Shown here in pieces: positions 503 through 42,507 of a DNA stretch of 64,000 nucleotides. Each line of letters begins with the position of its first letter. Positions within the stretch are counted from its first letter, which is position 1. Made by a program: the position numbers and the translations under genes. This stretch comes from an uncultured Eubacteriales bacterium (lineage in GTDB: Bacteria; Bacillota; Clostridia; Oscillospirales; Oscillospiraceae), in the NCBI GenBank assembly GCA_900547405.1, contig URGL01000002.1, positions 16,563-80,562 on the forward strand, in the 5' to 3' direction. The notes under the pieces are model-generated. The model did no database searches. It had not been told where the DNA came from and was given only the letters and a program-made list of their open reading frames with translations.

Positions 503-1402
503 TCAGTTGTGGAAGGTAAACTCCGTGCAGTCCAGAGTTGCAAAATAATCCATAGGGGTCTCTGCCCGGCGGATCTTCTGGAAGGTTCCGTCCTCGCGGA
601 GCAGGACCTCGGCGGAGCGGAGCTTGCCGTTGTAATTGTAGCCCATGGAATAGCAGTGGGCACCGGTGTCGTGGATCACCACGATGTCTCCCCGCTCAAT
701 GGCGGGCAGGCTCCGCTCAATGGCGAACTTGTCGTTGTTCTCGCACAGGCCGCCGGTGACATCGTACACGTGGTCCAGGATGGCATCCTCCTTGCCCAGC
801 ACTGTGATGTGGTGGTAAGCGCCGTACATGGCAGGCCGGATCAGGTCCGTGGCGCAGGCATCCAGGCCGATGTACTCCCGGTAGATGTGCTTCTGATGGA
901 GCACGGTGGAAACCAGGTGGCCGTAGGGAGCCAGCATGAACCGGCCCAGCTCTGTAAAGATAGCCACGTCTCCCAGGCCTGCCGGAGTCATGATCTGCTC
1001 AAATTTGGTCCGGACTCCATCGCCAATGGTCTGGATATTGCAGCTGGGCTGCTCCGGGCGGTAGTCCACACCGATGCCGCCGGAGAGGTTGATGAACCGA
1101 AAATCCGCCCCGGTGGCGTTTTTCAGCCGCACCGCCAGGCGGAAGAGCTGGCTGGCCAGCTCTGGGTAATACTCGTTGGTGGTGGTATTGGAGGCCAGGA
1201 AGGCGTGAATGCCAAAGTGCTTGGTGCCCAGCTTCATGAGGCGGTTGATGGCCCCCGCCATCTGATCTTCGGTCATGCCGTATTTGGCATCCCGGGGCAT
1301 ATCCATAATGGTGTTGCCCAGGCTGAAGGAGCCGCCGGGATTATATCGCAGGCACACCGTCTCCGGCACCGGCCCCAATCGCTCCAGGAAATCCACATTC
1401 AT
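503..1402 (-). pseudogene. Orn/DAP/Arg decarboxylase family-2 (LysA-like) gene remnant lacking the N-terminal PLP-lysine region
   Basis: 299 aa with HFGIHAFLASN, SGGIGV, ELGRF, CENND and HDTGAHCYSMGYNYNG motifs typical of the C-terminal two thirds of fold-type III decarboxylases. No room upstream for the missing ~110 aa (intergenic is 144 nt), and no SD before ATG 1402. Confidence 0.5.
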
Positions 1403-2250: not shown

Positions 2251-2277
2251 AAACGGGGGCGGAAAACCGCCCCCGTT
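2251..2277. terminator. bidirectional intrinsic terminator hairpin between convergent genes
   Basis: aaacgggggcgg-aaaa-ccgcccccgtt perfect hairpin flanked by A/T, preceded by tandem 11-mer aacggcatata x2. Confidence 0.65.
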
Positions 2278-2536
2278 AATCGTCATAATGGCCCTTGCAT
2301 GACAGGACCTCCAGCACACCGCCTCGGATACGGTAGACCAATCGGTGCGTATCATCGATACGTCTGCTCCAGAATCCACTCAGTTCTCCCTTTAGCGGCT
2401 CCGACTTGCCAAGCCCTTCAAAGTTGTTCCTTTCGATGTCCTTCAATAGCGTGTTGATCCTCTTCAGCATTTTCTTGTCTTGCAGCTGCCAATAGAGATA
2501 GTCCTCCCACGCCTCGTCAAACCACACCTTATTCAT
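2276..2536 (-). CDS. yoeB: YoeB/Txe family type II toxin (RelE superfamily mRNA interferase)
   Basis: 86 aa; WFDEAWEDYLYWQ...GELSGFWSRRIDDTHRLVYRI nearly collinear with E. coli YoeB. ATGA overlap with upstream antitoxin gene. Confidence 0.85.
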   Translation of the reverse strand: MNKVWFDEAWEDYLYWQLQDKKMLKRINTLLKDIERNNFEGLGKSEPLKGELSGFWSRRIDDTHRLVYRIRGGVLEVLSCKGHYDD

Positions 2537-2799
2537 TCGTCATCTGCCTCAATGAGTTCGTGCTTTACGCCCTCACCCCCATTCAAGGCAGCAATTCCAC
2601 GGCGCAGATGTTCCATATTGCTCTGCGCGTAAAAGGGGTCCGCTGAAATCTCAAAAGGGATTCGTCTCTCTCTGCCAACCTTTTTGGCAAACACGGTAAA
2701 AGCCGCACTCATAGATAATCCCATGTCCGCACAGGCCTGCTCCATACTTCTTTTCACATCCGCATCCAGTTTGAAATTCACATTCACTGTCTGTGCCAT
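2533..2799 (-). CDS. RelB/DinJ-type ribbon-helix-helix antitoxin paired with YoeB
   Basis: NVNFKLDADVKRSMEQACADMGLSMSAAFTVFAKKVGRERRIPFEIS is a DinJ/RelB RHH signature. Start ambiguous (GTG 2808 / ATG 2805 / ATG 2799); SD GAGGTG favours 2799. Confidence 0.7.
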   Translation of the reverse strand: MAQTVNVNFKLDADVKRSMEQACADMGLSMSAAFTVFAKKVGRERRIPFEISADPFYAQSNMEHLRRGIAALNGGEGVKHELIEADDE

Positions 2800-2872
2800 A
2801 TTCATCACCTCACCGGTAGTATATGATATCGCTAAGAAAAAATCAAGTGTTTTTCTTTAATTTTTCTTCACT

Positions 2873-3496
2873 TTATCTTTGTAAGGGTGATACTCGGCAG
2901 GATTCCCGCACCACCTGCACCACAGTATCCGGAGCATCGGCATTCAGCTCGTGTCCGGCATGAGGGACAACATAAAGTCGGGCATTGGGAAGATATTTTG
3001 CCAGCCGCCTGGCAGCCGCAAGGTTTGGGTGGTCTTTTTCGCCGCAGGCAACGGTCACCGGGCAGTGAATGGTGCTCAACCGGTCAGTAAAATCCAGTTT
3101 TTTCATCGAGCGGGTCAAATCACGGACTTGCTCCTTTTTCATGCCTGTAGACGCGAATGCCTTGTCCGGCATACAGCGAAACAGGAGGTCCTGGATGTCC
3201 ATCAGCAGCCGGGGTGTCCTGTCTCTGGCTCCCAGCAGAACCATAGCTGCCACCTGGTCACCATGGCGGAGGGCATAATCCAGCGCCAGCATACCGCCCA
3301 GAGACAGGCCGCAGAGGCATAGGGGCTCTTTTTCATACTCGTACCGTTCTTCCAAGGAAGAGAGAATGGCGGAATAGTTCAGCTTCTCCCCCGCTATTTC
3401 AAAAAGTTCCGGGCAATCCGTATTGGGAAATTGACTGGCCACCTGGTCCCAGTCTGCCGCCCGCTGGCCCAGCCCGTGGAGAAAAACGATCTTCAT
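2873..3496 (-). CDS. alpha/beta-fold hydrolase
   Basis: 207 aa from MKIVFLHGLGQ... with GLSLGG nucleophile elbow; GGAGGG SD before ATG 3496. The longer listed ORF is an upstream extension without RBS. Confidence 0.7.
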   Translation of the reverse strand: MKIVFLHGLGQRAADWDQVASQFPNTDCPELFEIAGEKLNYSAILSSLEERYEYEKEPLCLCGLSLGGMLALDYALRHGDQVAAMVLLGARDRTPRLLMDIQDLLFRCMPDKAFASTGMKKEQVRDLTRSMKKLDFTDRLSTIHCPVTVACGEKDHPNLAAARRLAKYLPNARLYVVPHAGHELNADAPDTVVQVVRESCRVSPLQR

Positions 3497-4275
3497 TTTG
3501 TCCCCTCCTTCCGAGCATCCGCCCAAAAGCATGCCAGGGCCAGCAGCACCATGATGACGGCATTGAACAGATCCGAATAGAGGTCCACCACTCCTACCTG
3601 GGGCAGAAAGATAGCCACCAGGGCCATAACCACAAAAGGCATCGGGAGCAGGACCAGCAGCCCCACTCCCGTCGCCCGCCAGGGGCGGCCAGGGATACGT
3701 CGGCAAACCCCGTAGAGGCACCACAGGTCCGCAATAGCGGCCAGGGCAATACACCCGCCAAGGCTCAGGACTATGGGCCGCTTCAGCAGTAGGGCCAGCC
3801 CCGCCAGATAGGGAACAGGCACCAGGCTCACCATCAACAGGGTCTTAAAAAGCACCCGGTCCTTCGCCCGAAAGAAGGGCAGCAGGACACCAACCCCCAC
3901 CAGGATGGACAGCGCTACGATCCAGGACCACCCGAGCTTCCCAGAGGTGAAGTAGTCGCAGATAAAGCATACAAAGGCCCCTGTAATGCCCAAGGCAGAT
4001 ATCCACACAAAGAAGACCCGCTTTCCTTTCTCCGGCCAGCAGAAGGCCCGTCTCCCGGTCTTTCGTACCGGTTCGGCGCTGTCCTCCTTGGTCAGGTAGT
4101 CCATGGATACACCGTACAGCTCGCTGAGCCGAACCAGTATCCCCAGCTCCGGCGTGGATAGATTCAGCTCCCACTTGGATATGGTCTGCCGTGTCACGTT
4201 GACTTTCCCTGCCAAAGCCTCCTGGGATAATCCCGCCTGTTTTCTAAGCGCTTGCAGCTTTTCTCCGAGTGTCAT
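3493..4275 (-). CDS. XRE-family HTH domain protein with C-terminal multi-pass membrane domain
   Basis: MTLGEKLQALRKQAGLSQEALAGKVNVTRQTISKWE HTH followed by ~6 hydrophobic helices. GGAGGCGGGG SD; ATGA overlap with downstream hydrolase. Confidence 0.7.
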   Translation of the reverse strand: MTLGEKLQALRKQAGLSQEALAGKVNVTRQTISKWELNLSTPELGILVRLSELYGVSMDYLTKEDSAEPVRKTGRRAFCWPEKGKRVFFVWISALGITGAFVCFICDYFTSGKLGWSWIVALSILVGVGVLLPFFRAKDRVLFKTLLMVSLVPVPYLAGLALLLKRPIVLSLGGCIALAAIADLWCLYGVCRRIPGRPWRATGVGLLVLLPMPFVVMALVAIFLPQVGVVDLYSDLFNAVIMVLLALACFWADARKEGTK

Positions 4276-4449
4276 AGCTCCCCGCCTCCGTTTTCCTGTT
4301 TCCGGAACAGTATAACAGATAGGCTGCCTTTTTACCACCACTTTCGGCAAAATCCGCCCGCAACGAATCGTTGCGGGCGGGACCAATAGCTATGAAACGG
4401 AGATTGCCACACCAGTCTGCGGACTGGTGTGGCAATGGCAGCGATATTT

Positions 4450-4878
4450 TTACGGATTTTTCCGGAAGCCCTCCTCCGCCGCCTGGCGGACCTGGGCAAT
4501 CGGGATATTCTGCTCCAGGGCGATCCGGCGCAGGTCTTCGTACTCCGGCTTGAACCGGCCCTCTACGGTCTTGACCCGGACAGGCCCCCAGGGGGTTTCC
4601 GCCTGGGCGAATTCCCGGCGAAGAAGGTAGCGCCGGTGCTCCGTCTGACGGATGCCGAGGGTGGTGGTGTGCCGAAAGAGGCACTGGGCCAGTTCTTCCT
4701 TCCGGTCTTCCCTGCTCAGGACGCTGAGCTGGATCCCCGGGCGGTTTTTCTTCATGCCGATGGGGGTGGTCCACACATCCAAGGCACCGGCATCCAGGAG
4801 CCGCTCCATGGCAAAGGCTATGTCCTCCGGGGTCATATCGTCCAGATTGCAGCTGAGCTCCCACACCGTGTCCGTCAT
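4450..4878 (-). CDS. larC: LarC C-terminal domain-like protein (nickel-pincer cofactor Ni-insertase, C-domain only)
   Basis: 142 aa; CNLDDMTPEDIAFAMERLLDAGALDVWTTPIGMKKNRPG matches the conserved LarC/DUF111 C-terminal block. The N-terminal ~260 aa domain is not encoded here. GGAGG SD; ATGA overlap with larB. Confidence 0.6.
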   Translation of the reverse strand: MTDTVWELSCNLDDMTPEDIAFAMERLLDAGALDVWTTPIGMKKNRPGIQLSVLSREDRKEELAQCLFRHTTTLGIRQTEHRRYLLRREFAQAETPWGPVRVKTVEGRFKPEYEDLRRIALEQNIPIAQVRQAAEEGFRKNP

Positions 4879-5630
4879 CTTCGAGCCTCCATATGGTTCA
4901 TCATGCTGGCCAGATATCCCGCCCCAAAGCCATTGTCGATGTTCACCACAGACACACCGCTGGCGCAGGAGTTGAGCATGCTCAGAAGGGCCGCCAGGCC
5001 GCCGAAGGCCGTGCCGTAGCCCACGCTGGTGGGCACCGCGATCACCGGGCAGTCGCACAGGCCGCCGATGACGCTGGCCAGAGCCCCTTCCATACCGGCA
5101 ATGGCTACCACTACGCTGGCATCCATCAGCTCCTGGCTATGGGCCATAAGCCGGTGGATACCGGAGACACCTACATCATAGAGCCGCACCACCTCGTTGC
5201 CCAGGAACTCCGCCGTCAGGGCCGCCTCCTCGGACACAGGGATATCGCTGGTGCCGCCGGTGGCAATGACGATCCTGCCCATGCCCCAGGGCTTGGCCAT
5301 GCCGCCGGAAATGGCCAGGTTGGCATTTTCATAGTAGGTGATAGGAACCTGGGTCCCCACAAATTTCGCTTTTTCCGGAGATATCCGGGTAATGAGCACA
5401 TTTTCCTGACCGTTTTCCCGGAGGCTCCTGATGATCCCGGCAATCTGCTGGGCGGTCTTTCCGGCTCCGTAGATCACCTCTCCGGCTCCCTGGCGGAGGC
5501 GGCGGTGGAGATCCACCTTGGCATAACCGATATCCTCAAAGGGCTTCTGCTTCAGGTGAAGCAGGGCCTGGTCCACAGACATGGATCCATTCTGGACCCC
5601 CAGCAGGACCTCTCGCACCTCACTGTCCAT
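4875..5630 (-). CDS. larB: LarB, nickel-pincer nucleotide biosynthesis carboxylase/hydrolase (PurE-like)
   Basis: 251 aa; N-domain plus PurE-like core with VVAIAGMEGALASVIGG and VIAVPTSVGYG, typical of LarB. Confidence 0.8.
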   Translation of the reverse strand: MDSEVREVLLGVQNGSMSVDQALLHLKQKPFEDIGYAKVDLHRRLRQGAGEVIYGAGKTAQQIAGIIRSLRENGQENVLITRISPEKAKFVGTQVPITYYENANLAISGGMAKPWGMGRIVIATGGTSDIPVSEEAALTAEFLGNEVVRLYDVGVSGIHRLMAHSQELMDASVVVAIAGMEGALASVIGGLCDCPVIAVPTSVGYGTAFGGLAALLSMLNSCASGVSVVNIDNGFGAGYLASMMNHMEARR

Positions 5631-6375
5631 TGCGGGCCTCCATATCCAAAATCACCCCGGCATAGCGGGTCTTCAAAGTGCGGGTAATCTCCCCCCGCAG
5701 AGCCAGGAAGGTATCCATCTGGGCCTCAGGCAGCTGGACCAGGGCAAGGTCTCCGCTCAGCTGGCGCACCCGCAGATCCCGGAAGCCCAGGCTCATCAGG
5801 TGATCCTCTGCCCATTCGGTCCTGGCCAAATCCGCTCCGGTGATCTCCGTCCCCGCGGGGATCCGGGTAGCCAGGCAGGCATAGGAGGGCTTGTCCCAGG
5901 TGAAGAGCCCCGCCTCCTGGGAGAGGCTACGGATCTCTGCCTTGGTCAGCCCTGTCAGGCGCAGGGGAGACAGGACCTTCATTTCCTGTAGGGCCTTCAT
6001 GCCGGGCCGGTCAGAAACCTGGTCCGAGGCGTTGGTGCCGTCCAGCACCGTATCGTAGCCGTCAGCCTTGGCCTGCCGCAAAATATTGCCAAAAATGTGC
6101 TGCTTGCAGAAGTAGCACCGGTTCTTGGGGTTCACGGTCACGTCCGGGCAGGCCAGTACATCCAGAGTCAGCACCTGGATATCGGCTCCAAGCTGAGAGG
6201 CCAGACGCAGAGCATCCTGATACTCAAATTCCGGCTGAAAAGCGGTTTTTACATAGTAGGCCTTCACGTCCGCCCCCAGCTGCCTGGCAGCATAGAGCAG
6301 ATAAGAGGAGTCCACTCCGCCGGAGAAGGCCAAGGCCGCTTTGGGATGGGCTCCGAAAAATTCTTGTAATGTCAT
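5620..6375 (-). CDS. larE: LarE, ATP-dependent sacrificial sulfur transferase (PP-loop ATP pyrophosphatase)
   Basis: 251 aa with PP-loop SGGVDSS and conserved Cys (NRCYFCK) as in LarE. Confidence 0.8.
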   Translation of the reverse strand: MTLQEFFGAHPKAALAFSGGVDSSYLLYAARQLGADVKAYYVKTAFQPEFEYQDALRLASQLGADIQVLTLDVLACPDVTVNPKNRCYFCKQHIFGNILRQAKADGYDTVLDGTNASDQVSDRPGMKALQEMKVLSPLRLTGLTKAEIRSLSQEAGLFTWDKPSYACLATRIPAGTEITGADLARTEWAEDHLMSLGFRDLRVRQLSGDLALVQLPEAQMDTFLALRGEITRTLKTRYAGVILDMEARNGQ

Positions 6376-6376
6376 A

Positions 6377-6760
6377 TCATTTCACCAGTTTGTCGATGGC
6401 TTGAATCAAATCTTCAATGGCCTCCTGATCTCCGGCGGCCACAGCATCCACCATACAGTGGCGCATATGGTCCTTGAGGATCACTTTTCCTGTGTTATCC
6501 AGGGCGGAGCGCACTGCCGCCAGCTGCACCAGCACCTCGGAGCAGTCATAGCCTTCCTCCACCATCCGCTTCACCTTTTCCAGATGCCCGATGGCCCGGG
6601 ACAGGCGGTTGATCACCGCCTTCTGATTTTCGTGAACATGGCCGTGGGAATGGGGGATCCCGTGGGCATGGAAATAGGCATGGTCATGCTCGTGGTCATG
6701 AGGATGCTCGTGGTCATGGTCGTGGGGATGGTCCTGGTCGTGGTCATGTAATTCAGACAT
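6377..6760 (-). CDS. CsoR/RcnR/InrS-family metal-sensing repressor with His-rich N-terminal tail
   Basis: 127 aa; a ~45-residue His/Asp-rich N-terminal tail, then the DUF156 core with Cys (YDCSEV), His and Cys (KDHMRHC) at the W-X-Y-Z sensing positions. Confidence 0.8.
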   Translation of the reverse strand: MSELHDHDQDHPHDHDHEHPHDHEHDHAYFHAHGIPHSHGHVHENQKAVINRLSRAIGHLEKVKRMVEEGYDCSEVLVQLAAVRSALDNTGKVILKDHMRHCMVDAVAAGDQEAIEDLIQAIDKLVK

Positions 6761-6786: not shown

Positions 6787-6820
6787 TATAGTATTATACT
6801 CTATTTTCAGGCTCTTTGCA
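6787..6820 (-). promoter_or_regulatory. sigma-70 promoter (TTGCAA-16-TATAAT) for the metal sensor, with a 15-17 bp palindrome over the -10
   Basis: Minus strand reads TTGCAAagagcctgaaaatagagTATAAT; inverted repeat tATAGTATtATACTcTa (AGTAT-t-ATACT perfect) overlaps the -10 hexamer. Confidence 0.5.
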
Positions 6821-6847
6821 AGTAGCATTCCCCCGCAAAGAAATACT

Positions 6848-6876
6848 TTGACATCTCTGAACAATGCGAGTATAAT
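6848..6876 (+). promoter_or_regulatory. consensus sigma-70 promoter TTGACA-17-TATAAT for the His-rich protein/cooT operon
   Basis: TTGACAtctctgaacaatgcgagTATAAT, then AGGAGG SD before ATG 6911. Confidence 0.55.
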
Positions 6877-6910: not shown

Positions 6911-7273
6911 ATGCATTTGGATCACGATCATATTTCCGGCGGTGCCCACGAGCACACCCATACCCATGCCGATGGCACCGTCCACACCCATACCCACACC
7001 CACGAGGGGGACCACGACCACAGCCACGACTGCGCCCACGACTGCGGCTCCTGCGGCAACACCTGCGAGCATACGCCCATGGAGGAGCTCACCGCTCTCA
7101 TGAAGTATATGGTGGGCCACAATGCCGCCCACGCCAAGGAGCTGGCGGAGCTGGCCAAGAAGCTGGACGAAGCCGGCAATCACACCGCCTACGAGCAGGT
7201 CTGCGCTGCTGTCTCCGACTTCGAAAAGGGCAATATGCGTCTTTCCGTCGTCCTGCAGAGCCTGGCTGAGTAA
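6911..7273 (+). CDS. His-rich metal-binding protein (HxH/HTH repeats plus CxxC pair) with C-terminal helical domain
   Basis: 120 aa from MHLDHDHISGGAHEHTHTHADGTVHTHTHTHEGDHDHSHDCAHDCGSCGNTCEH...; AAGGAGG SD. No confident family match by eye. Confidence 0.55.
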   Translation: MHLDHDHISGGAHEHTHTHADGTVHTHTHTHEGDHDHSHDCAHDCGSCGNTCEHTPMEELTALMKYMVGHNAAHAKELAELAKKLDEAGNHTAYEQVCAAVSDFEKGNMRLSVVLQSLAE

Positions 7274-7296: not shown

Positions 7297-7494
7297 ATGT
7301 GTCTTTCCACTGTTTACCGCAACAAAATAGATCCCCAGGATGTGGTCATGAAGAACGTTATGACCATCGAGTGCAAGGATGGGGTCATCCTCCTCACCGA
7401 CCTGATGGAGCGCCAGGTAGCCGTTGAAGGCACCCTGGAAAAAGCCAACCTGGTAGACGGCTACGTCGTCATCAAGGAAGCAAAGAGCGCCTGA
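7297..7494 (+). CDS. cooT: CooT-family nickel-binding protein
   Basis: 65 aa beginning MC (conserved Ni-ligand Cys2), with length and beta-rich pattern similar to R. rubrum CooT; AAGGAGG SD. Confidence 0.6.
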   Translation: MCLSTVYRNKIDPQDVVMKNVMTIECKDGVILLTDLMERQVAVEGTLEKANLVDGYVVIKEAKSA

Positions 7495-7520: not shown

Positions 7521-7997
7521 ATGTTTTTCAAATACCTGATCGTCTTTTTCATTTCTATGGTGCCCCTCATTGAGCTCCGCGGTGCCATTCCCGTTGCCAT
7601 CGGCATGGGGCTGGACACGCTGCCCTCTATTGCGGTCTGCGCCGTAGGCAATCTGCTGCCGGTACCCATTATCTACTTTTTCGCCCGGAAGTTTCTGATC
7701 TGGGGCCTGGATAAGCCCTATATCAGCGGCATATGCCACTTCTTCCACGACAAAGGAGAAGCTGCCGGTCAGAAGCTCTCCAGCTCCCGCTTTGGTCGTT
7801 TTGGGTTAATGGCAGCCCTCATTGTCTTCGTGGGCATTCCCGTTCCCGGCACCGGTGCCTGGACCGGCACCTTAGGGGCCAGCTTTCTGGACCTGGGCAT
7901 GAAGAAAACCGCCCTGTCCGTCACATTGGGGGTTCTGATCGCCGCCATCATTATGGCCACCGTCAGCAACGTAGGGTTCCACGCCATCGGTATGTAA
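7521..7997 (+). CDS. small membrane protein, COG2426 / small multidrug export protein-like (PF06695)
   Basis: 158 aa, 4-5 TM helices, IELRGAIPVAIGMGL and GIPVPGTGAWTG motifs. Confidence 0.55.
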   Translation: MFFKYLIVFFISMVPLIELRGAIPVAIGMGLDTLPSIAVCAVGNLLPVPIIYFFARKFLIWGLDKPYISGICHFFHDKGEAAGQKLSSSRFGRFGLMAALIVFVGIPVPGTGAWTGTLGASFLDLGMKKTALSVTLGVLIAAIIMATVSNVGFHAIGM

Positions 7998-8016: not shown

Positions 8017-8358
8017 ATGAACGACTGTCTCTTCTGCCGGATCATTTCCGGTGAGATCCCTTCCACCAAGGTCTACGAGGACGAAACCGTCTTCGCCTTC
8101 CGGGACATTCATCCTCAGGCCCCCACCCACATTCTGGTGATCCCCAAGGTCCACATCTCCGGCTGCAACGGCGTAACCGCCGAAAACAGCCAAGTGGTGT
8201 CTCATATCTTTGAGGTCATTCCTCAGATCGCCGCGGCAGAGCATCTGACGGGGGGCTACCGGGTGGTGTCCAACTGCGGACCGGATGCCGGGCAGACTGT
8301 GCCCCATCTCCACTTCCACATCCTGGGCGGCAAAACCTTGGCCCTGGATATGGCTTGA
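8017..8358 (+). CDS. HIT-family (histidine triad, Hint-like) nucleotide hydrolase
   Basis: 113 aa with HLHFHILGG histidine triad. Confidence 0.85.
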   Translation: MNDCLFCRIISGEIPSTKVYEDETVFAFRDIHPQAPTHILVIPKVHISGCNGVTAENSQVVSHIFEVIPQIAAAEHLTGGYRVVSNCGPDAGQTVPHLHFHILGGKTLALDMA

Positions 8359-8393: not shown

Positions 8394-8501
8394 GCATATA
8401 CGCTTGTCTTCGGGGTGCCGGCTCACCGGCTGAGATAGGGATATAGTCCCTGACCCGTCAAACCTGATACGGTTCGTACCGTCGTAGGGAAAGATGCGTC
8501 A
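8394..8501 (+). ncRNA. TPP (THI-box) riboswitch aptamer
   Basis: P1 acgcat/atgcgt; GGGGUGCC...CUGAGA...ACCCG..AACCUGAUACGGUUCGUACCGUCGUAGGGAAAG matches the TPP riboswitch consensus; ThiT gene downstream. Confidence 0.85.
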
Positions 8502-8514
8502 AAGAATTTTATGT

Positions 8515-8570: not shown

Positions 8571-9122
8571 ATGCAATCCCACAAGCAACTTCGTGCCCTG
8601 ACCGAGGGTGCGATCCTCATCGCCCTGGCTGAAATTCTCAGCTTCCTGCCCCTGTACAAAATGCCCTGGGGCGGCTCCCTGGATCTCGCCATGCTGCCCA
8701 TCATCGTCTTCTGCGTCCGTTGGGGCTTTGGTCCCGGCCTGATCGTCAGCTTTGCCCACGCCGTGCTGCAGACCCTGTTTGAAGGCGGCATTGCCATCGG
8801 CTGGCAGAGCATCATTGGCGACTTCATCGTCGCCTACACCGTGCTGGGCCTGGCCGGTCTGTTCAAGGGCAAGTTCTATCCCGCCACGGTGGTTTCCTGT
8901 GTGTCCCGGTTCCTGGTGCACTATGTCGTCGGCGCTACCATCTGGGCCGAGTATATGCCCGAGACCTTCTTCAACATGACCATGACCTCTCCCTGGATCT
9001 ACTCCGCCCTGTATAACGCCGCTTATATGCTGCCGGACATGGTGATCATCCTGGTGGTGGGTGTCATTCTCATGAAGACCCCCGCCAAGAAATACCTCCT
9101 GGGCCAGGATCTGGCGGCTTGA
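8571..9122 (+). CDS. thiT: ThiT, thiamine ECF transporter substrate-specific (S) component
   Basis: 183 aa, 6 TM, typical ThiT pattern (PWGGSLDLAMLPII, WAEYMPETF); GGAGGT SD; downstream of TPP riboswitch. Confidence 0.85.
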   Translation: MQSHKQLRALTEGAILIALAEILSFLPLYKMPWGGSLDLAMLPIIVFCVRWGFGPGLIVSFAHAVLQTLFEGGIAIGWQSIIGDFIVAYTVLGLAGLFKGKFYPATVVSCVSRFLVHYVVGATIWAEYMPETFFNMTMTSPWIYSALYNAAYMLPDMVIILVVGVILMKTPAKKYLLGQDLAA

Positions 9123-27775: not shown

Positions 27776-28879
27776 TCATCCCAAAATAGTGTCACAGATT
27801 TTATCTACATCTTCCAACGCCAAATCTGCGTACAAAGGCAATGTCAGCACCCGTAGCGCCAGGTGTTGGGCTACCGGCGTCTTTTCCACTCCAGCAGTAG
27901 GATAGTTTCGATAGCATTCGAAGCTGTTGGTCAGTGGGAAGAAATACTTCCGGGCAGTAATTTCCTGGGCTTTCAGCATTTCGAAAATCTCATTACGGGT
28001 ATACTTGTAGCCGTCAAACACCACAGGAAAGTAAGCGTAATTGGACTCTACCCCATCTTGAGGCTGGCAAAGGCAGATTCCCTCTACCCCACTCAGGCGC
28101 TGGCGATAGCGTTCCACAACTATTTTCCTTTTAGCTATTTCCCCGTCCAAATGTCGCAGATTACAGATACCCATTGCCGCCTGGAATTCGTTCATCTTGG
28201 CATTTCCGCCTACATAAGCCACTTCCTCCGGGCCATGGAATCCGAAGTTCTTCTGATCATTCAGCAGCTGTACCCAGCTGTCATTTTTATAACACACTGC
28301 GCCACCTTCGATGGTATGGAACACCTTAGTAGCGTGGAAGCTGAACATGGAGGCATCTCCGAAGCAGGCCGAGGACACGCCCTTGTACCGTACGCCAAAG
28401 GCATGAGCAGCATCGTAGATCACCTTCAGACCATACTTTTTCGCAATCATCTCAATGGTCTCTACGTCACACAGGTTTCCGTACACATGCACTGGCACGA
28501 TAGCCACGGTTTTATCGGTGATCAGGCTCTCCAGCTTGGTCACATCCATGGTGTAGTCCCGGTTGTTTACATCACAGAACACCGGCACCAGTCCATTGCG
28601 CACAATGGCGTGAGTAGTGGATGCAAATGTGAATGGCGTGGTAATCACTTCTCCCCCTTCCGGCAGGTTCAGCGCCCCAATAGCATTCTCCAGCGCCAGA
28701 TGCCCGTTGGTATAGAGGGTCACATGGGGAACACCCAGGTATTTCTCTAGTTCCGTCTGAAGCTGCTTGTGCTTTGCACCCATATTGGTCAGCCAGCGGG
28801 TATTCCATAAATCTTTGATTTCGTCACAGTATTCCTCAAATGTTGGCATTGAGGAACGGGTAACCAAAATTTGTTTCAT
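27776..28879 (-). CDS. DegT/DnrJ/EryC1/StrS-family PLP aminotransferase (dTDP-4-keto-6-deoxyhexose 4-aminotransferase-like)
   Basis: ~367 aa; sugar aminotransferase fold with candidate PLP lysine in SFHATKVF; AAGGAAGG SD before ATG 28879. Confidence 0.85.
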   Translation of the reverse strand: MKQILVTRSSMPTFEEYCDEIKDLWNTRWLTNMGAKHKQLQTELEKYLGVPHVTLYTNGHLALENAIGALNLPEGGEVITTPFTFASTTHAIVRNGLVPVFCDVNNRDYTMDVTKLESLITDKTVAIVPVHVYGNLCDVETIEMIAKKYGLKVIYDAAHAFGVRYKGVSSACFGDASMFSFHATKVFHTIEGGAVCYKNDSWVQLLNDQKNFGFHGPEEVAYVGGNAKMNEFQAAMGICNLRHLDGEIAKRKIVVERYRQRLSGVEGICLCQPQDGVESNYAYFPVVFDGYKYTRNEIFEMLKAQEITARKYFFPLTNSFECYRNYPTAGVEKTPVAQHLALRVLTLPLYADLALEDVDKICDTILG

Positions 28880-28900
28880 CTTGCCTTCCTTCATTCCTTT

Positions 28901-29410
28901 TCAAAATATATCCAGCAGGAAGCGTAGCTGGTCCGCATCTGTCTGCGAAAACGGGATGCACATATTCTGATTATAGTACCGTCTATCCCCAGTTACATCC
29001 TCTAATGTACCAAAACTTTGCAAGGTTGCATTTTCAAAGTTCTCCCCTTCATACTCCAGTAAATACTCCGTAACACCATTTGATCTCAGAAATCTATCCA
29101 AGAACACTTTTTCTCTGATAGATCTCCGTTTCAGCACAAAGGGGATCCCCACCATTTTTCCCGGATTAAAATCACGAATATCCAGGTATTCCACATTTTT
29201 GTGATTTTTCCCTTCTCCACAACTCACTTTAGATATACGCGCATATATGATTTTGGCCCTTGTCAAATCAAAAATTATTTTTTCTTTGACACTTCCCTGC
29301 GCATTCTTCTCAAGAAACCATTGGTAAACAATATGTTCTCGTTCCCAAGTTTCCTCTTTTTGATTCTTCGAAATTAAATATTTTCTTTCGTTTTCTTCAA
29401 TTGTCTTCAT
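28901..29410 (-). CDS. hypothetical protein (low-GC, within the dTDP-sugar module)
   Basis: 169 aa, no recognisable motif; translationally coupled (4 nt overlap) to the upstream ATP-grasp gene. Confidence 0.4.
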   Translation of the reverse strand: MKTIEENERKYLISKNQKEETWEREHIVYQWFLEKNAQGSVKEKIIFDLTRAKIIYARISKVSCGEGKNHKNVEYLDIRDFNPGKMVGIPFVLKRRSIREKVFLDRFLRSNGVTEYLLEYEGENFENATLQSFGTLEDVTGDRRYYNQNMCIPFSQTDADQLRFLLDIF

Positions 29411-30584
29411 GTCTTTTCAGCCTTCCTCAGCAGCCTTTTATTGACAAAATCATCCACAGCAAACGGCTCTTTCTCATCTGAGGAATGATTGCGAATCACT
29501 GTCATAATAAAATCTGCGTTTGAAGAGAATCCACCCTTCTTTTCCGGATGCAGCTGATTCACCTGAATCTCGCATTCACCAAAGACTGTTGACAACACCT
29601 TCTGGCATTCCTCCAAATCATACTCCACCGGACAGCTCTGATGGTTAAATACATAGTCCATACGCAAATTGGGTCTAGCAACCTGAAATGGAATCACTTT
29701 GTCCCCGGTGATCAGCCGGATATACTCGTCCATCAAATTCCGATCATACAGTCGGGAAATAAAAGTCTTATAGTACGTTCCGCCTCCAACTCCAATATCC
29801 ATTTCGATCATATCAATGCTCTTTTCGGAAACAATGATATCCGCTTTGATAATGGAATTTTGGATTCCAGAATCCGCCAGAAACCGCTGAATGTACGCTT
29901 GAAGCCTGTCCAGATGGTCATCCGCATATCGCAGCACACCTAAAAATACTGTATCCCGGTAGGATCTGCGCAAAACAGGTGCCAGCAGCTTCAGTTTTCC
30001 GTTCTGAACAATCGTGACACAGCGATATTCGTCACCTTTACGTACATCCTGTACAATATCCTCTTTGCACACATCCCCATTATCCCGATAACGATGCATC
30101 AACGTTTCCCCGGACAGAATCGTAATTCCCTCCGATCCTCTGCCGGATGCGGGCTTTAGAATGTACTCCTCATTTGGGTGGATATCTCCATCTGTCAGCT
30201 CCGATATTTTCCATGTATGGATTGTAGACAGCCCATATTTCTCCAGCAATAACTGCTGCTTTGTCTTGTCAGAACCAACTGCAAGCTCATCCGGAATGGC
30301 TGTCACGGTACCATAGTAGTTCGACAATCTCTGAACCGTTTGAACCGCTCCACCTCCGGCAAAGGAACCAACTGCTGCCACCTGGACTCCTAAGGAATCG
30401 ATCCATCGAATGGCCGCCTCCGGATCATGCGTGTCCAGCTCTGCCGAATAGTCGCACAAGCGAATCGCCTCAGCAGAGTTTTTTCCCTTTCCAAAGGCAA
30501 CCACTGTATAGCCATTTTCCTTTAGTCTCTTGATAAAAGCCAGCTGCTGCGGCCCCATTCCAACAGATATTACTACTTTTTTCA
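29407..30584 (-). CDS. ATP-grasp domain protein (amide ligase-like)
   Basis: ~392 aa from GTG 30584 (GGGAGGA SD); pre-ATP-grasp Rossmann N-domain plus ATP-grasp core. Confidence 0.6.
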
Positions 30585-30601
30585 CCGCTATCCTCCCAAA
30601 A

Positions 30602-31708
30602 TCAACGTTCCATAGTCTCCATTCGATACACATTTATCGTGTCCGGCCTGTCATACATATCCGCTCGCTGGAAATTCTCCCAATGATCCTGAAAAAATTG
30701 TCTTCCGGGACCGTGCCACACGCAGTCTTTCTCCGCGCTGCGTCCCCCGCTCCAATAATAATATGCCTCACAAGGTTGATCGGTAAATGCCTTCTCCTTC
30801 ATAAATCCCGTATCCTGAAGAAACGCTTCAATTAATGGAACACCCGCATCAACATACAGCTGTGTTGGACCCCAGAGTCTAGGATTGGCCTCGATCATGT
30901 AGTACCGCTCCTTACATTTCCGAAGCTCAATCATAACAAACCCAACAAACTTTTGATCCTTAAAAAGTGCCTCGAATTGACCCGATATCTCCGAAGTGTG
31001 CAAATTCCTGGATACCGCCGCCAAAATGGATTTTCCATTGGGCTGCTGCGCAATATTTTCCTGTGAAAAAGATATTACTGTTCCATTTTTTGCGAAGTAA
31101 TACAAGAGATAGAAGCTTTCACCCTGCACAAACTCCTGTAAATCAAAGTCTTCTCCTCGATAATTCCGTATAAAAGTCCGGTACTCCTCTTCTGTTTCTA
31201 CAATCACCGGTGCGTATACCTTCCCATCCGATGATACATAATGCTTCGGTTTGGCAACAAAAGGCTGTCCCTGCCAGCAGTCAATCTCTATATTCTCCGG
31301 GACCGTTAGTCCCCGATTTCTGCACAGTTTCCAAAAGGTCTCTTTATCCGATATTTCATAATATTGCTTAGCCTCAACCAAAGGAATCTCGCATTTGTGT
31401 TTTCGAAATATTTCTCGGTTCTCCAAGACGAACCGGTTTAATGCCTCGGTGCTTGGTACAATTGTTGCCATTTCTGCACCGGTATCCGCTAATGTAGCCT
31501 CTGTCGCGAAAAGTATTTCGTCCAGATTCAACTGCTTTATCTTTCTAACATAAGAGACTCTGTCTTTATAATCCGTCACAAGTATTGTGTCCTGATCTGA
31601 TGCGGCAATAATCCTAAAATTATCTATTCTGTTCTTTTTTAGCTCCCGCAAAAACGCAACTACAGCCCGCTGGTTGTATCCTGAGAAAATCAACAGCACT
31701 TTTTTCAT
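30602..31708 (-). CDS. ATP-grasp domain protein (second, paralogous-type ligase)
   Basis: 368 aa; ATP-grasp architecture (central fold, E...N catalytic residues, MIEANPRLWGP). Confidence 0.6.
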   Translation of the reverse strand: MKKVLLIFSGYNQRAVVAFLRELKKNRIDNFRIIAASDQDTILVTDYKDRVSYVRKIKQLNLDEILFATEATLADTGAEMATIVPSTEALNRFVLENREIFRKHKCEIPLVEAKQYYEISDKETFWKLCRNRGLTVPENIEIDCWQGQPFVAKPKHYVSSDGKVYAPVIVETEEEYRTFIRNYRGEDFDLQEFVQGESFYLLYYFAKNGTVISFSQENIAQQPNGKSILAAVSRNLHTSEISGQFEALFKDQKFVGFVMIELRKCKERYYMIEANPRLWGPTQLYVDAGVPLIEAFLQDTGFMKEKAFTDQPCEAYYYWSGGRSAEKDCVWHGPGRQFFQDHWENFQRADMYDRPDTINVYRMETMER

Positions 31709-33168
31709 TTAGACTCTTCCCTTTTCCCATTTTTTTTCCAAACAAGTTTTAACTGCTCCCACAAATACTGGAAGCCCTCCAGTTTCAGCAAGGCAGAGCC
31801 CACAATGAAAATGCAGGCCCCCATAATGACCTGAATAAGCAGCGTAAGCAAATCTGAAAATCCTATCCACTTTACTGGATAAACGCAGCAGCCCATAAAC
31901 ACAGCAAGTAAAATTCCCGGAAGAATATCCCTGATTTGTTCTGGGTAACTGTAATCTAACAATTTCTTGTTGGGCCAACTATTGATAATCTGGCTGGTAA
32001 TACTTGTAAACAAGAGACTATACGCCATTGCCATAACGCCAAACCACATCGTACCTAGCAGGACAATCAGCCCAATCACCTTCTTTATTGTCTCCAGCTT
32101 CAAAAACAAATCGCTGCGTCCCATTGCCTTGATAGCATTCAGATTTGTAGTATTGACCGGATAAAACATATATGTGATACAAAATATCCGAAGGAAAGGT
32201 ACACAAGGTAGCCATTTTTCCGTTAAAATCAGGTGAATAACCGACTCCGCTGTAAAGGCCAGCCCCATCATAACCGGTGCAATCACGTAGGTGCTCGTCT
32301 TCATTGCACGCCGAGTCATATTCTTGACTCGTTCCGGATTGTCCTGGACCTGAGACATAGCTGGCAACAAAACACTGTTGATGGAGGTGTCAATATTATT
32401 CACCAGCAGATCCGGCAGCTGTTTACCCCGATTATACTGAGCCAGGTCTGTCTTTGTATACATCTTCCCAATGATTAGCTGGCGCAAATCGTTATACACA
32501 GTATCCAGGAGCGACGAAGCAAGCAACTTCCAACCAAAAGAAAACAGGCCCTTCAATCGCCGCCAGGAGAACATCCATTTAGGCCGCCACTTGACGGTAA
32601 TCCATAGAATGAGGGTGTCCACAGTGGCGTTGAATATCTGCTGGGCTACCAACGCCCACACGCCAAATCCAAAATAGGCCATAGCAATACCGATAACCGC
32701 CGCACCGATGGTACCTCCCAAGGTAGCAAAGAAGAAGCGCTTAAACTGCATAGTCCGGCTCACGTATGCCTGCTGCACATTTTTTACACCGGAAATTACC
32801 AGTGTCAAACTCAATACCCGGACCACCGATATCAGAGATGCATCATTATAAAATTTTGCAATCATCGGTGCTGCCAGGAACATTCCTAGGTATAGCAACA
32901 CGCATATGGCGATATTAAAATAGAACACCGTAGAAAAGTCCAAATCATCTGCATCTTTTTTTTGGATCAAAGCATTTCCGAATCCGCTGTCTATAAAAAC
33001 ATTCAGGATTTGAGTAAAAACCGTTACCAAAGCAATTGTGCCGTAGGCTTCCGGCGCCAGCAGTCTAGCCAGGACAATGGATACTACAAATGCAACGCCC
33101 TGGGCACCAAAGCGCTCCGCCAAGCGCCATATAAAATTAGACATAACTCCGGAATTCTCTCTTGCCAC
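31705..33168 (-). CDS. wzx: Wzx-type oligosaccharide flippase (MOP superfamily polysaccharide biosynthesis protein)
   Basis: 487 aa, ~12-14 TM, typical polysaccharide-biosynthesis (PST) N-terminal block. Confidence 0.8.
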   Translation of the reverse strand: MARENSGVMSNFIWRLAERFGAQGVAFVVSIVLARLLAPEAYGTIALVTVFTQILNVFIDSGFGNALIQKKDADDLDFSTVFYFNIAICVLLYLGMFLAAPMIAKFYNDASLISVVRVLSLTLVISGVKNVQQAYVSRTMQFKRFFFATLGGTIGAAVIGIAMAYFGFGVWALVAQQIFNATVDTLILWITVKWRPKWMFSWRRLKGLFSFGWKLLASSLLDTVYNDLRQLIIGKMYTKTDLAQYNRGKQLPDLLVNNIDTSINSVLLPAMSQVQDNPERVKNMTRRAMKTSTYVIAPVMMGLAFTAESVIHLILTEKWLPCVPFLRIFCITYMFYPVNTTNLNAIKAMGRSDLFLKLETIKKVIGLIVLLGTMWFGVMAMAYSLLFTSITSQIINSWPNKKLLDYSYPEQIRDILPGILLAVFMGCCVYPVKWIGFSDLLTLLIQVIMGACIFIVGSALLKLEGFQYLWEQLKLVWKKNGKREESK

Positions 33169-34122
33169 TTATCTCATCCTCCGGCGCAAATCGAAAATCA
33201 GGCTGGCCGCCTTTGGACAATACTGCCCAATCTTCATGACTGCCTGCCTGTAAGAAGGCATCTTACGGAACTGGATGCTGTATTGAGGAGCACAAATCGT
33301 CCGATACTCTCTGGCTTGCACCAGACACTCGAATTTCAAATCGTTAATCGCTTCCAGAATCGCCTCCTGATACTTTCCAGCAGTATCTGTATTCAGTTGT
33401 TGCAACATTTCGAATACTCTATCATTGTGTTTTTTTCTGGCCTCTAAATTCTGATTCATGCGAACCGTCCAAGAACCAATCGTTTCCGCCCGAAAAATAC
33501 TCATAGGTGCTCCAAGGTAGAGCATCCCGCCTCGAAGGGAACCCGCAATCTGCAATGGGTAATCCCCACTCATCTTGTAAAAAAAAGGAAGCGAATTCTC
33601 CCGCACCTCTTTTCGGTACATCAGCGACCCCGTCGCCACAAATCCGCCACCGCCGCGAATGACCTCGTCCGGTGTAAACAAGCCATCCTCATTTGAGGGA
33701 AACACCTGAGCCTGCACCTTTCCATTTACATCGGTTTTTGTCCCAGATGCGCAGATATCCACATTAGAGTTAGCCTCCAAAGCATCAAACTGTTTTTGCA
33801 GCTTTAACGGGTCCGTCCAATAGTCATCCCCTTCGCACAGCGCAATATATCTTCCCTGAACCCTACCATATTGAATCCGCTGCAAGGATCCGTCCCGCTT
33901 GGAATACTGATTCACCGTTTCATAAATTGGCTTGACGATTTCAGGATATCTTTTTTCATACTCTCTGATAATGTCCGCCGTTTTATCTGTCGAAGCATCG
34001 TCATGCACCAATATTTCGAATGGAAAGGTCGTTCTTTGCATGACAAATCCTTCCATCGCATCCCGGATATATTTCTCATGATTATAGGCATTGCATATAA
34101 TGCTCACCTGAATATCATCCAT
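33169..34122 (-). CDS. glycosyltransferase family 2
   Basis: VSIICNAYNHEKYI...LVHDDASTD...EGDDYW: DxD/GT-A motifs. Confidence 0.8.
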   Translation of the reverse strand: MDDIQVSIICNAYNHEKYIRDAMEGFVMQRTTFPFEILVHDDASTDKTADIIREYEKRYPEIVKPIYETVNQYSKRDGSLQRIQYGRVQGRYIALCEGDDYWTDPLKLQKQFDALEANSNVDICASGTKTDVNGKVQAQVFPSNEDGLFTPDEVIRGGGGFVATGSLMYRKEVRENSLPFFYKMSGDYPLQIAGSLRGGMLYLGAPMSIFRAETIGSWTVRMNQNLEARKKHNDRVFEMLQQLNTDTAGKYQEAILEAINDLKFECLVQAREYRTICAPQYSIQFRKMPSYRQAVMKIGQYCPKAASLIFDLRRRMR

Positions 34123-40424: not shown

Positions 40425-40440
40425 GATGTGTCCTCCATTC
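40366..40440. repeat. 75 bp direct repeat, copy 1 (RBS plus 5' end of fnlA), flanking the Abi cassette
   Basis: ttaccgaaggagccggtaccgccggtgatcatcagggttttgtttttaaaaagagacatgatgtgtcctccattc is identical to 41693-41767. Confidence 0.9.
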
Positions 40441-40537
40441 AATCATATTTTTTCTTATTGAACAAGGCAATTGTAACAAATACACTGCACAACAGTTTTT
40501 TGACAGCGATATTTGATAGAGTAGAATTTCTTTGCAC

Positions 40538-40566
40538 TTGACAATTTTGATACAATCCACTATAAT
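40538..40566 (+). promoter_or_regulatory. consensus sigma-70 promoter TTGACA-17-TATAAT driving the Abi gene
   Basis: cTTGACAattttgatacaatccacTATAATg in an AT-rich insert; then AGAGGTG SD and ATG 40653. Confidence 0.6.
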
Positions 40567-40652
40567 GTTTGCAATAGAACCCGCCACGCCTAGTCATGTT
40601 CCCATGAATGCGCAACCCGGCGGGACTTTTTGTATTTATAGAGGTGCGCAAT

Positions 40653-41558
40653 ATGTACCAGTATCCAAAAAATATCCAGAACACCGCACAGCTATTGCAA
40701 AAGTGGAGCAATGCTGGGATGCAGATCACCGCAAACGACAATGCCGAAGAAACCCTTGATCAGGTTGGGTATTATCGTCTCAAAGGCTACGCTTTTCACC
40801 TGTACGACAAATCATCCGGAAAATTTGAGACCGGTGTGACCTTTGCGAAGGTTGCAAACATTTACAGGTTTGATTCCGCGTTATCAAATCTTGTGTTCAG
40901 TTTCATTGCGCAAATTGAGGTATCGCTTCGTGCCCGGCTTGTTTCTGCGCTTTTGCTCCATGGAGATGCATTGGTTCTAAATGACCCGTCTATATTTTCA
41001 GAGAAAGACAAGTATTGGAAAAATCAGGGTACCATCGCATCTGAAATCGCACGATCAAATGATGTGTTTATAAAGCACAACTTCCGTCAATACGATGGGG
41101 CTGTCCCGCTCTGGGCCTCTGTTGAGGTAATGTCATTCGGCACGCTCTCTAAAGTGATCAAAAACCTCAAGCCTACCACTGCCGAATACAAAGCATTGGT
41201 TCAACATTACAGATTTATCGGACCGTCCGGCAAATACATTGTTCCCTCACAAAAAATGTTCACGTCGTGGATCCAGTCCGTCTCCGTAATGCGGAATATC
41301 TGTGCGCATAACAGCAGGATTTATAATAGGGCTATCAGTACCGCGCCCCAATTGACGCAATTAGATTTCGTCAATCCGCAGCCGCAATACAATGGCCTGT
41401 ATCAAATCCTTTTGGCCATGAAATACCTTCGTCCGTCAGACAATGCGTGGAATTCTTTTGTTGCAAAGCTCAATGGGTTGTTCTCGCAATACCCGGCCGT
41501 CGTTGATCTCACCCGACTAAATTTTCCGTCAGACTGGCGTGATCATTTTAAGCTTTAA
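40653..41558 (+). CDS. Abi_2-family abortive-infection protein (AbiD/AbiF-like, HEPN Rx4H motif)
   Basis: 301 aa; GYYRLKGYAF, SALLLHGDA and MRNICAHNSRIYN (R-x4-H HEPN motif) are characteristic of Abi_2/AbiD/F proteins. Low GC relative to flanks. Confidence 0.8.
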   Translation: MYQYPKNIQNTAQLLQKWSNAGMQITANDNAEETLDQVGYYRLKGYAFHLYDKSSGKFETGVTFAKVANIYRFDSALSNLVFSFIAQIEVSLRARLVSALLLHGDALVLNDPSIFSEKDKYWKNQGTIASEIARSNDVFIKHNFRQYDGAVPLWASVEVMSFGTLSKVIKNLKPTTAEYKALVQHYRFIGPSGKYIVPSQKMFTSWIQSVSVMRNICAHNSRIYNRAISTAPQLTQLDFVNPQPQYNGLYQILLAMKYLRPSDNAWNSFVAKLNGLFSQYPAVVDLTRLNFPSDWRDHFKL

Positions 41559-41654
41559 GTTCCGGAATATTTCCACCCCCTGTCACATATACTATCCATT
41601 ACAGAGCTGATCAAGCCTCTCAAAGACGCTCAAATCGGTCAGCCTTTCTGTGGC

Positions 41655-41694
41655 CGCCCCAGCAGTTCATTTCAGACTGCTGGGGCGGTTTTTA
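41655..41694 (+). terminator. intrinsic terminator of the Abi cassette
   Basis: ccgccccagcag-ttcatttcagac-tgctggggcgg then ttttt. Confidence 0.75.
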
Positions 41695-41767
41695 CCGAAG
41701 GAGCCGGTACCGCCGGTGATCATCAGGGTTTTGTTTTTAAAAAGAGACATGATGTGTCCTCCATTCT
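41693..41767. repeat. 75 bp direct repeat, copy 2 (orphaned RBS plus 19 codons of fnlA, reading into cassette end)
   Basis: Identical 75-mer; encodes MSLFKNKTLMITGGTGSFG then out-of-context KNRPSSLK-stop. Confidence 0.9.
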
Positions 41768-41779
41768 TATGTTTGGCAT

Positions 41780-42328: not shown

Positions 42329-42384
42329 GGGCGGTTGTGCTCCTTTTCATGTAGTATTTGATTCTCTTTGGGTATTATAATCGA

Positions 42385-42422
42385 AACCGCGAGAATTGGC
42401 AAGCAATTCTCGCGGGTTTTTG
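42385..42422. terminator. strong hairpin between the two paralogs
   Basis: aaaccgcgagaattg-gcaag-caattctcgcgggttttt, a perfect 13 bp stem with A/T flanks. Confidence 0.45.
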
Positions 42423-42507
42423 TACAGGAGATGGTAAATTGTTTGGGTGTCCCATCGGGCGTTTGCTGGATTCCCGGACTGGGGAAGTCAGAGAGGGGCT
42501 ATTGCGG

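Follow-up and report, generated by a model that had tools for sequence, protein, structure and literature searches.

We analysed a 64,000-nucleotide stretch of DNA from an uncultured Eubacteriales bacterium of the Oscillospiraceae (assembly GCA_900547405.1, contig URGL01000002.1, positions 16,563 to 80,562 of the forward strand), here called the window. On its reverse strand four genes, encoding an InrS-like repressor, LarE, LarB and a LarC reduced to its C-terminal LarC2 domain, probably form a working operon under the control of nickel. LarC is, to our knowledge, the only enzyme described as a biological cyclometallase, and to judge from its genes this operon would encode every step of nickel-pincer cofactor synthesis but the insertion of nickel. 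The ancestor of a clade of gut bacteria appears to have lost the LarC1 domain by a single in-frame deletion, and the clade has kept the rest of the operon intact. We tentatively favour the explanation that nickel is inserted by a LarC1-type partner encoded elsewhere in the genome, and set it nearly level with a route that needs no LarC1.

Gene content of the lar operon

The operon is headed by the gene for the InrS-like repressor of the CsoR/RcnR family (6377..6760, reverse strand; PF02583, E 4e-28), a protein of 127 aa with a His-rich N-terminal tail, whose stop codon lies 1 nt before the start of larE. Gene larE (5620..6375, reverse strand) encodes an ATP-dependent sulfur insertase of 251 aa, which has the SGGxDS signature in its PP-loop (AFSGGVDSS) and passes the TIGR00268 equivalog test with 239 bits against a cut-off of 150. 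It overlaps by 11 nt with larB (4875..5630, reverse strand), encoding the nicotinic acid adenine dinucleotide (NaAD) carboxylase/hydrolase. This protein, also of 251 aa, passes the NF033503 equivalog test (282.4 bits, cut-off 175), contains the PurE-like AIRC domain (PF00731) and is 55% identical to the LarB of L. paracasei. The last gene (4450..4878, reverse strand) encodes only the CTP-binding domain of the LarC cyclometallase, in 142 aa, and its start codon overlaps the larB stop codon in an ATGA that can be read directly from the sequence, so that the gap and overlaps in the operon amount to 1, 11 and 4 nt. An original prediction, made from the letters of the sequence before any database search, had read this region as a nickel-pincer cofactor operon larE-larB-larC with a C-domain-only LarC, and the gene identities support that reading, including the full-length LarE with its SGGVDSS loop and the full-length, PurE-like LarB. 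The three genes lie where they had been placed, but the operon begins one gene earlier than proposed, with the repressor gene.

In the alignment of LarE proteins, the window protein and its relatives share a CxxC motif and an active-site cysteine (NRCYFC, YACLATR); the L. paracasei LarE in the same alignment has only the last of the three cysteines. We take the three-cysteine pattern to be that of the Fe-S-cluster-dependent subtype, and the window LarE is therefore probably of this type and catalytic, not sacrificial.

The 142-aa product covers only positions 242-374 of the 375-position Pfam family Ni_insertion (PF01969, E 3e-51). It scores 155.3 bits, against a cut-off of 50, over model positions 1-118 of 118 of the NCBIfam model for LarC2 (NF052512), and aligns end to end with the crystal chain of L. 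plantarum LarC2 (6bwo, E 2e-25, residues 3-134). The motifs which are invariant in the family (NxDD, MKKxRP, TTTxGxR and PE(Y/F)xD) are all retained. The protein begins at the domain boundary (MTDTVWELSCNLDDM), where its sister proteins have a linker ahead of the motif, and it matches neither the LarC1 domain (positions of about 1-240 of PF01969, with the His patch and the acidic pocket) nor the interdomain linker. These results bear out the proposal that the third gene corresponds to the C-terminal domain of LarC, that the N-terminal domain is absent and that larB occupies its place; the full-length match to 6bwo answers the doubt, raised together with that proposal, of whether the open reading frame (ORF) would align with LarC structures at all. 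A longer ORF of 202 aa, which starts with GTG at 5058 in the frame of LarC2, was considered as a possible hiding place of LarC1. Its 60 additional residues match no family, so no LarC1 remnant is hidden upstream. A split by frameshift of the L. plantarum type was also rejected, as the place upstream is taken by larB and holds no ORF for larC1.

Five LarC1 sequences (those of L. paracasei and Paenibacillus and the close full-length LarCs P0127, P0141 and P0128) were used as tblastn queries. They pick up the LarC1 of control loci (1e-28 to 1e-40), gave only chance-level matches in the window and found no LarC1 in the 10-kb flanks of those relatives that carry the LarC1-less module. With a single LarA query, the Paenibacillus LarA homologue, tblastn (E < 10) gave nothing better than chance in the window. 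Moreover, no LarC1, LarA, aldo-keto reductase or ornithine cyclodeaminase was found in Pfam scans of about 50 window ORFs, and PF09861 (LarA) is missing both from these scans and from the precomputed annotations of the relatives. Otherwise the window is made up of pheST, clusters of polysaccharide genes and the usual housekeeping functions. The lack of a LarA gene nearby, which the original prediction had pointed out, is thus real, but it is not a peculiarity of this operon: when the best 80 related loci, from one genome per GTDB species, were classed by tblastn with 10-kb flanks, none of them had LarA within 10 kb by the same single query. In this group, then, the client enzyme is as a rule unlinked.

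The repressor found at the head of the operon is of the InrS type. Its best solved relatives are 6ahx and InrS (5fmn, 80 bits), whereas copper-sensing CsoR proteins reach about 50 bits and FrmR about 30 bits. The Ni(II) ligands of InrS are His21, Cys53, His78 and Cys82 (PMC7055735), and they align with H41, C73, H98 and C102 of the window repressor, which thus combines the PF02583 domain with the complete His-Cys-His-Cys set. In the relatives, where the repressor is 83-93% identical, the four residues and the His-rich N-terminal tail are invariant.

Distribution and origin of the LarC1-less module

The exact LarC2 protein of the window occurs in many human-gut metagenome contigs and in the metagenome-assembled genomes (MAGs) GCA_052310635.1 and GCA_964316935.1, and its context is the same throughout; its 90% cluster has 425 members. 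The best 120 LarC2 homologues in a collection of 5.8 billion proteins, which go down to 59% identity, are of 127-229 aa and all but two are shorter than 175 aa; the two that reach this length carry an unrelated second Pfam domain. The closest match listed in the scan of one genome per GTDB species is from a Faecousia sp. (Oscillospiraceae), with 90% protein identity and 88-90% DNA identity across the locus. We place the window itself in a species of Faecousia.

Among the 80 loci, the order repressor-larE-larB-larC2 without LarC1 was found in 11, from 11 species which include the isolate Pseudoflavonifractor sp. MSJ-30, and the module is present in three further metagenome contexts with no LarC1 within 10 kb. 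Full-length larC is present in 67 of the 80, mostly as larE-larB-larC with no repressor upstream of larE. All 11 LarC1-less clade loci have an InrS-like gene directly upstream of larE. Not one of the 67 full-length loci does; four of them show no more than weak CsoR-like matches elsewhere in the locus. In a neighbour-joining tree of LarB the 12 loci with repressor-larE-larB-larC2, the window included, form one clade nested within Faecousia-like loci that have full-length larC. The remaining two loci are LarC1-less in other ways: Acutalibacter sp. 1XD8-36 (L051) has larB-larC2 without larE, and locus L084 has larE-larB-larC2. Moreover, a 387-aa ORF (L104:1571-2734; GCA_028748505.1, contig JAMHJE010013148.1) fuses a complete LarE to LarC2, with no LarB or LarC1 on its 3-kb contig; this fusion is a Rosetta-stone link between LarE and LarC2 that does without LarC1.

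Some lineages with full-length larC have a CsoR/InrS-like gene directly downstream of it (L142:7295-7537, L143:3693-3929 and L076:10440-10703), so the pairing of lar genes with such a sensor is not unique to the LarC1-less clade. A Nik-type ABC transporter was considered as a general neighbour of lar operons and discarded, since it was found in only one of the 67 full-length loci. In eight related species or contexts larC2 is directly followed or overlapped by an 83-aa gene with a FakA-like middle domain (PF21645), which is absent from the window (L009:10431-10682, also L010, L011, L027, L029, L030, L032, L033 and L095). This gene is 92-94% identical between species whose LarC2 is only about 60-65% identical to that of the window.

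The manner in which LarC1 was lost can be read from the larB/larC junction. In the sister full-length loci the junction GAGGCAAAGAAATGAAAC is followed by MKQLYLD..., and the LarC2 domain starts further on as '...GDTVFELSCNLDDM'. In the clade the junction is GAGGCCAGGAAATGACGG followed by MTDTVWELSCNLDDM, with the same ribosome-binding-site context and the same ATGA overlap, which is kept in all 15 clade loci examined. Because this junction is the same in the clade and in its full-length relatives, we conclude from the alignment that one in-frame deletion removed codons 2 to about 250, that is LarC1 and the linker, and left the start codon and the translational coupling in place. Judging by the tree, the deletion took place in the common ancestor of the clade, which numbers at least 12 species.

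In all clade members the LarC2 ORFs are intact and of 140-153 aa. Pairwise dN/dS is 0.11-0.43 for LarC2, 0.08-0.27 for LarE, 0.03-0.19 for LarB and 0.02-0.10 for the repressor, with a synonymous divergence of about 0.4-0.6 for the closest species (L022) and near saturation for the others. The LarB, LarE and LarC2 of the clade retain every residue that the full-length group conserves, and His81 and Arg87 are the only clade-specific positions of LarC2. As all four genes are under purifying selection, the sequences indicate that the LarC1-less arrangement is functional and long-lived and does not represent decay. It had been suggested that this copy might turn out to be a decayed duplicate of a full-length larC; the intact LarC2 and its dN/dS speak otherwise, and there is no full-length larC paralogue among the GTDB matches listed.

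How nickel could be inserted

In the systems studied so far LarC2 performs the CTP-dependent CMPylation of the mononucleotide of pyridinium-3,5-bisthiocarboxylic acid (P2TMN), and the His patch and acidic pocket of LarC1 are reported to be essential and to serve in nickel insertion (PMC13510736). The linker was also reported to be important, and mutations in it strongly cut the activity of the Moorella thermoacetica LarC (PMC13510736). By homology to the enzymes of L. plantarum and M. thermoacetica, the LarB of the window would carboxylate and hydrolyse NaAD to the mononucleotide of pyridinium-3,5-biscarboxylic acid (P2CMN), which LarE, probably of the Fe-S type, would convert to P2TMN, a dithio acid. 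The free-standing LarC2, probably hexameric, would then use CTP to produce the CMP-activated P2TCD. We suggest that nickel would be inserted into this product in trans by a LarC1-type protein from an unlinked locus, making this a naturally split LarC, and that the cofactor would then pass to an unlinked client enzyme. The InrS-like repressor would hold the operon off until nickel is available.

The participation of an unlinked LarC1-type partner in a working operon is our preferred explanation, although we hold it only tentatively. LarC1-only genes do exist in the Oscillospiraceae (L016:1278-2204, L102:796-1596 and L017:10001-10939, the last in the MAG GCA_017633235.1). They are intact, encode very His-rich proteins of 266-312 aa that end exactly at the linker, and have no larB, larE or larC2 in their flanks, and would thus seem to need a LarC2 in trans. 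Scattered lar genes have also been reported in other gut Clostridia (PMC7702098), and the separate, adjacent larC1 and larC2 genes of Paenibacillus likewise speak for a partner in trans. Loci L016 and L102 are syntenic and share two small membrane proteins, a 252-aa TPR-like protein, a DUF3842 protein and an aldo-keto reductase; no synteny was found between the orphan-LarC1 loci and the window. The aldo-keto reductase was examined as a pincer-dependent client and rejected, being a canonical enzyme of the YvgN type (top match YvgN 3f7j, E 1.5e-83).

Several observations weigh against such a partner. To judge from the junctions the LarC1-less state arose by deletion and not by relocation, and a second source of LarC1 must therefore have pre-existed. 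The clusters of LarC1-only proteins are rare, with 1-3 sequences each against 425 for the window LarC2 cluster, and the orphan genes show no special affinity to the Faecousia sister group. In the full-length relatives LarC2 identities of 52-74% accompany LarC1 identities of 61-82%, so an inherited LarC1 partner should rank high in LarC1-seeded searches. A metagenome scan with a profile of the sister-group LarC1 found 78 of 80 loci to extend past LarC1, all with LarC2, while the other two end at a contig edge; LarC1-only genes were therefore 0 of 78, a weak negative since only 2 of the 80 loci belong to the sister group. Moreover, complementation in trans is not guaranteed, because mutations of the linker strongly reduce the activity of the M. 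thermoacetica enzyme.

A LarC1-independent route is in our view nearly as likely. In such a case no LarC1 homologue would exist, the end product would be P2TCD or P2TMN, and nickel would either be acquired by an unrelated route, with the client enzyme or small nickel binders such as CooT and the His-rich DUF8180 protein as possible donors, or be chelated by the thiocarboxylates in a response controlled by InrS. In its favour, LarC1 was deleted and not moved, LarC1-only genes were rare in three LarC1-seeded searches, and larE, larB and larC2 have stayed under purifying selection while at least 12 species diverged. On the tree the deletion coincides with the gain of the His-rich InrS-like gene (11/11 against 0/67), and in seven species CooT or DUF8180 genes and an exporter gene, divergently oriented, share the control region of the operon. 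LarC1-less arrangements have also arisen independently in L084, in L051, in the LarE::LarC2 fusion L104 and in the orphan LarC2 of Collinsella. Furthermore the cofactor is already known in one dinucleotide form, NPAD (cited in PMC13524815). What speaks against this route is that LarC1 residues are essential in both studied systems and that the formation of the Ni-C bond is chemically hard (PMC13510736), that the window LarC2 shows no new ligand-like residue except an invariant His81, and that in about half of the clade CooT and DUF8180 do not lie beside the operon. It is possible, if somewhat doubtful, that the Faecousia/Pseudoflavonifractor clade has no LarC1 homologue whatsoever and that nickel insertion is completed otherwise or bypassed. 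P2TCD could then be handed to the client or to nickel chaperones, which by analogy with NPAD would make it a cytidine-dinucleotide form of the nickel-pincer cofactor; alternatively, the cell could produce the thiocarboxylate nucleotide to chelate nickel, with InrS in control.

Other explanations have far less in their favour. A second, full-length larC elsewhere in the genome might do the work, with the LarC2 described here accessory or redundant: Clostridia often have several LarA homologues per genome (PMC11770544) and full-length LarC is common in related gut species. We find this improbable, since a redundant LarC2 should decay, yet it is intact in every clade member with a dN/dS similar to that of LarE; it is also suggestive that none of the 11 clade genomes shows a second LarC2-containing locus among the GTDB matches listed. 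The abundant full-length LarC P0336 was considered as a paralogue from the same genome and rejected, as its assembly is a different one and it comes from another organism, which has a larE-larB of its own. It is still harder to believe that the stand-alone LarC2 has moved to another nucleotidyl-transfer role outside the pincer cofactor. The orphan LarC2 of Collinsella, which adjoins yfcE and mazG with no lar genes near, would agree with such a move, but the window larC2 shares an operon with larE and is coupled to larB in translation, a LarE-LarC2 fusion exists elsewhere, and the clade LarC2 differs from the LarC2 domains of full-length enzymes at only two positions. Least credible of all is a functionless remnant decaying after the loss of LarC1. 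The essential domain is indeed gone and the locus of Acutalibacter sp. 1XD8-36 is down to larB-larC2; against this, the ORFs are intact and coupled by ATGA throughout the 15 clade loci, dN/dS is 0.03-0.43 at a synonymous divergence near saturation, the promoter is conserved, the family-invariant LarC2 motifs are kept, and the larC2 gene is abundant in gut metagenomes.

The Collinsella gene belongs to Collinsella aerofaciens (L014:5953-6438, NZ_OY725717.1) and encodes a stand-alone LarC2 homologue of 161 aa, 41% identical, beside a yfcE phosphodiesterase gene and mazG, with no larB or larE near. The LarC2 domain may have uses outside the lar pathway.

Control region, neighbouring genes and known systems

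Upstream of the repressor gene we found a promoter-like site, TTGCAA-17-TATAAT (6793..6821, reverse strand), whose -10 box lies within the palindrome AGTATAATACT, and just upstream of it a G5 tract (6830..6834). Neither TTGC nor TATAAT varies among the upstream regions of 11 relatives, several of which have G/C-tract or -10-centred inverted repeats at the promoter. Repressors of the CsoR/RcnR family use G/C-tract inverted repeats of this kind. The palindrome and the G5 tract are a candidate operator, through which nickel could derepress the operon. At the other end, 18 nt after the larC2 stop codon, there is a stem-loop (4407..4432, reverse strand) with a perfect stem of 11 bp followed by a weak T-rich stretch. 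It is unique in the window, had 0 matches in 100 shuffles and is the probable end of the transcript. No riboswitch, NiCo or other, was seen at the operon; the only one observed was an ordinary thiamine pyrophosphate (TPP) riboswitch (RF00059, 76.8 bits; 8401-8507, forward strand) preceding a thiT-type thiamine transporter gene (8571..9122).

The same intergenic region contains a divergent promoter (6848..6876, forward strand) with a perfect sigma-70 consensus, TTGACA-17-TATAAT (12/12). It is followed on the forward strand by genes for a His/Cys-rich DUF8180 protein (6911..7273, 120 aa, by precomputed Pfam annotation), a small CooT-family protein (7297..7494, 65 aa; PF10133, E 2e-17), a membrane protein of the 'small multidrug export' family (7521..7997, 158 aa; PF06695, E 6e-36) and a HIT-family nucleotide hydrolase (8017..8358, 113 aa; NCBIfam and Pfam HIT). 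CooT-family proteins are presumably nickel binders; in Pfam the family is entered as an accessory protein of CO dehydrogenase. By tblastn the DUF8180 gene is linked to the operon in seven other species, all within the LarC1-less clade though not in every member of it, and the CooT, exporter-family and HIT genes lie beside the operon in six other species. From its composition the DUF8180 protein probably binds metal. The PF06695 protein, by association with these genes, could possibly export metal or ligand, and a role of the HIT hydrolase in the pathway is speculative. The DUF8180 protein was also considered as a remote LarC1 homologue and rejected, since the likeness is confined to a His-rich, low-complexity stretch of 15 columns.

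Elsewhere in the window, a RelB/YoeB toxin-antitoxin pair (2276-2808, reverse strand) is present in most strains of the species and absent at the same position in the MAG GCA_964316935.1 (L005). The Orn/DAP/Arg decarboxylase (503-1402, reverse strand) has 299 aa here and in L001 and L006, and 420 aa in L002-L005; the short form looks like a strain-specific 5' truncation. An alpha/beta-hydrolase gene (2873-3754, reverse strand), downstream of an HTH membrane protein, also varies between strains, with no copy in L002 and an ORF of 65 aa left in L003. Two low-GC islands, at about 28000-34000 and 40000-52000 (39-47% against about 58%), encode flippases, glycosyltransferases, pyruvyl transferases and EpsG and are probably horizontally acquired surface-polysaccharide loci. 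An Abi-like gene is found at 40608..41558.

Stand-alone LarC2 is already known from NCBIfam, as are split LarCs in L. plantarum, by frameshift, and in Paenibacillus, as adjacent genes. In the literature searched we found no description of a conserved and selected operon from which LarC1 has been excised, with none nearby, and which has spread through an abundant gut clade, nor of lar genes controlled by an InrS-type sensor. The published clusters of the NPAD-dependent ornithine cyclodeaminase and the NPMN-dependent aldo-keto reductase resemble the window in that no LarA gene adjoins their lar genes, which points to a client that is unlinked or is not LarA; the window has neither of these two enzymes. 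Those clusters were published through a LarC or LarE search anchor and were not described as lacking LarC1. Synechocystis InrS (5fmn) is the best named structural relative of the window repressor, shares the His-rich N-terminal extension and has the four nickel ligands conserved, but it controls nickel efflux and import genes, whereas the window homologue would be co-transcribed with cofactor biosynthesis.

The L. plantarum LarC is similar in its motifs, in its operon with larB and larE and in its LarC2, to which (6bwo) that of the window is 38-40% identical. It differs in that larC1 is located directly upstream and is fused to larC2 by a programmed frameshift, where the window has larB. In Paenibacillus cellulositrophicus LarC is encoded by two adjacent genes (annotated 'LarC family nickel insertion protein' and 'nickel insertion protein'), and LarC2 is likewise a separate polypeptide with its own start codon. 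There larC1 is 28 nt upstream in the same operon, beside a LarA homologue, whereas the 64 kb of the window contain neither. The LarC of Moorella thermoacetica (cryo-electron microscopy, 12bi) and the sister Faecousia operons agree with the window in the larE-larB-larC order, in the ATGA junction and in LarC2 (identities of 50-65%); by comparison the window lacks LarC1 and the linker, with the His patch and acidic pocket, and has gained an InrS-like gene before larE. If an unlinked LarC1 and LarC2 work together, then the two need not be covalently joined, and P2TCD is an intermediate that can diffuse; otherwise nickel is inserted, or the ligand used, in a way so far undescribed, and the finding would be much more interesting if the genomes of the clade have no LarC1 at all. 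The 2026 cryo-electron microscopy model places nickel insertion in LarC1 and makes the linker important, so that a gut clade whose operon has lost exactly that half of the enzyme is a natural experiment on this model, and the question is directly testable in the cultured isolate Pseudoflavonifractor sp. MSJ-30, which has the module.

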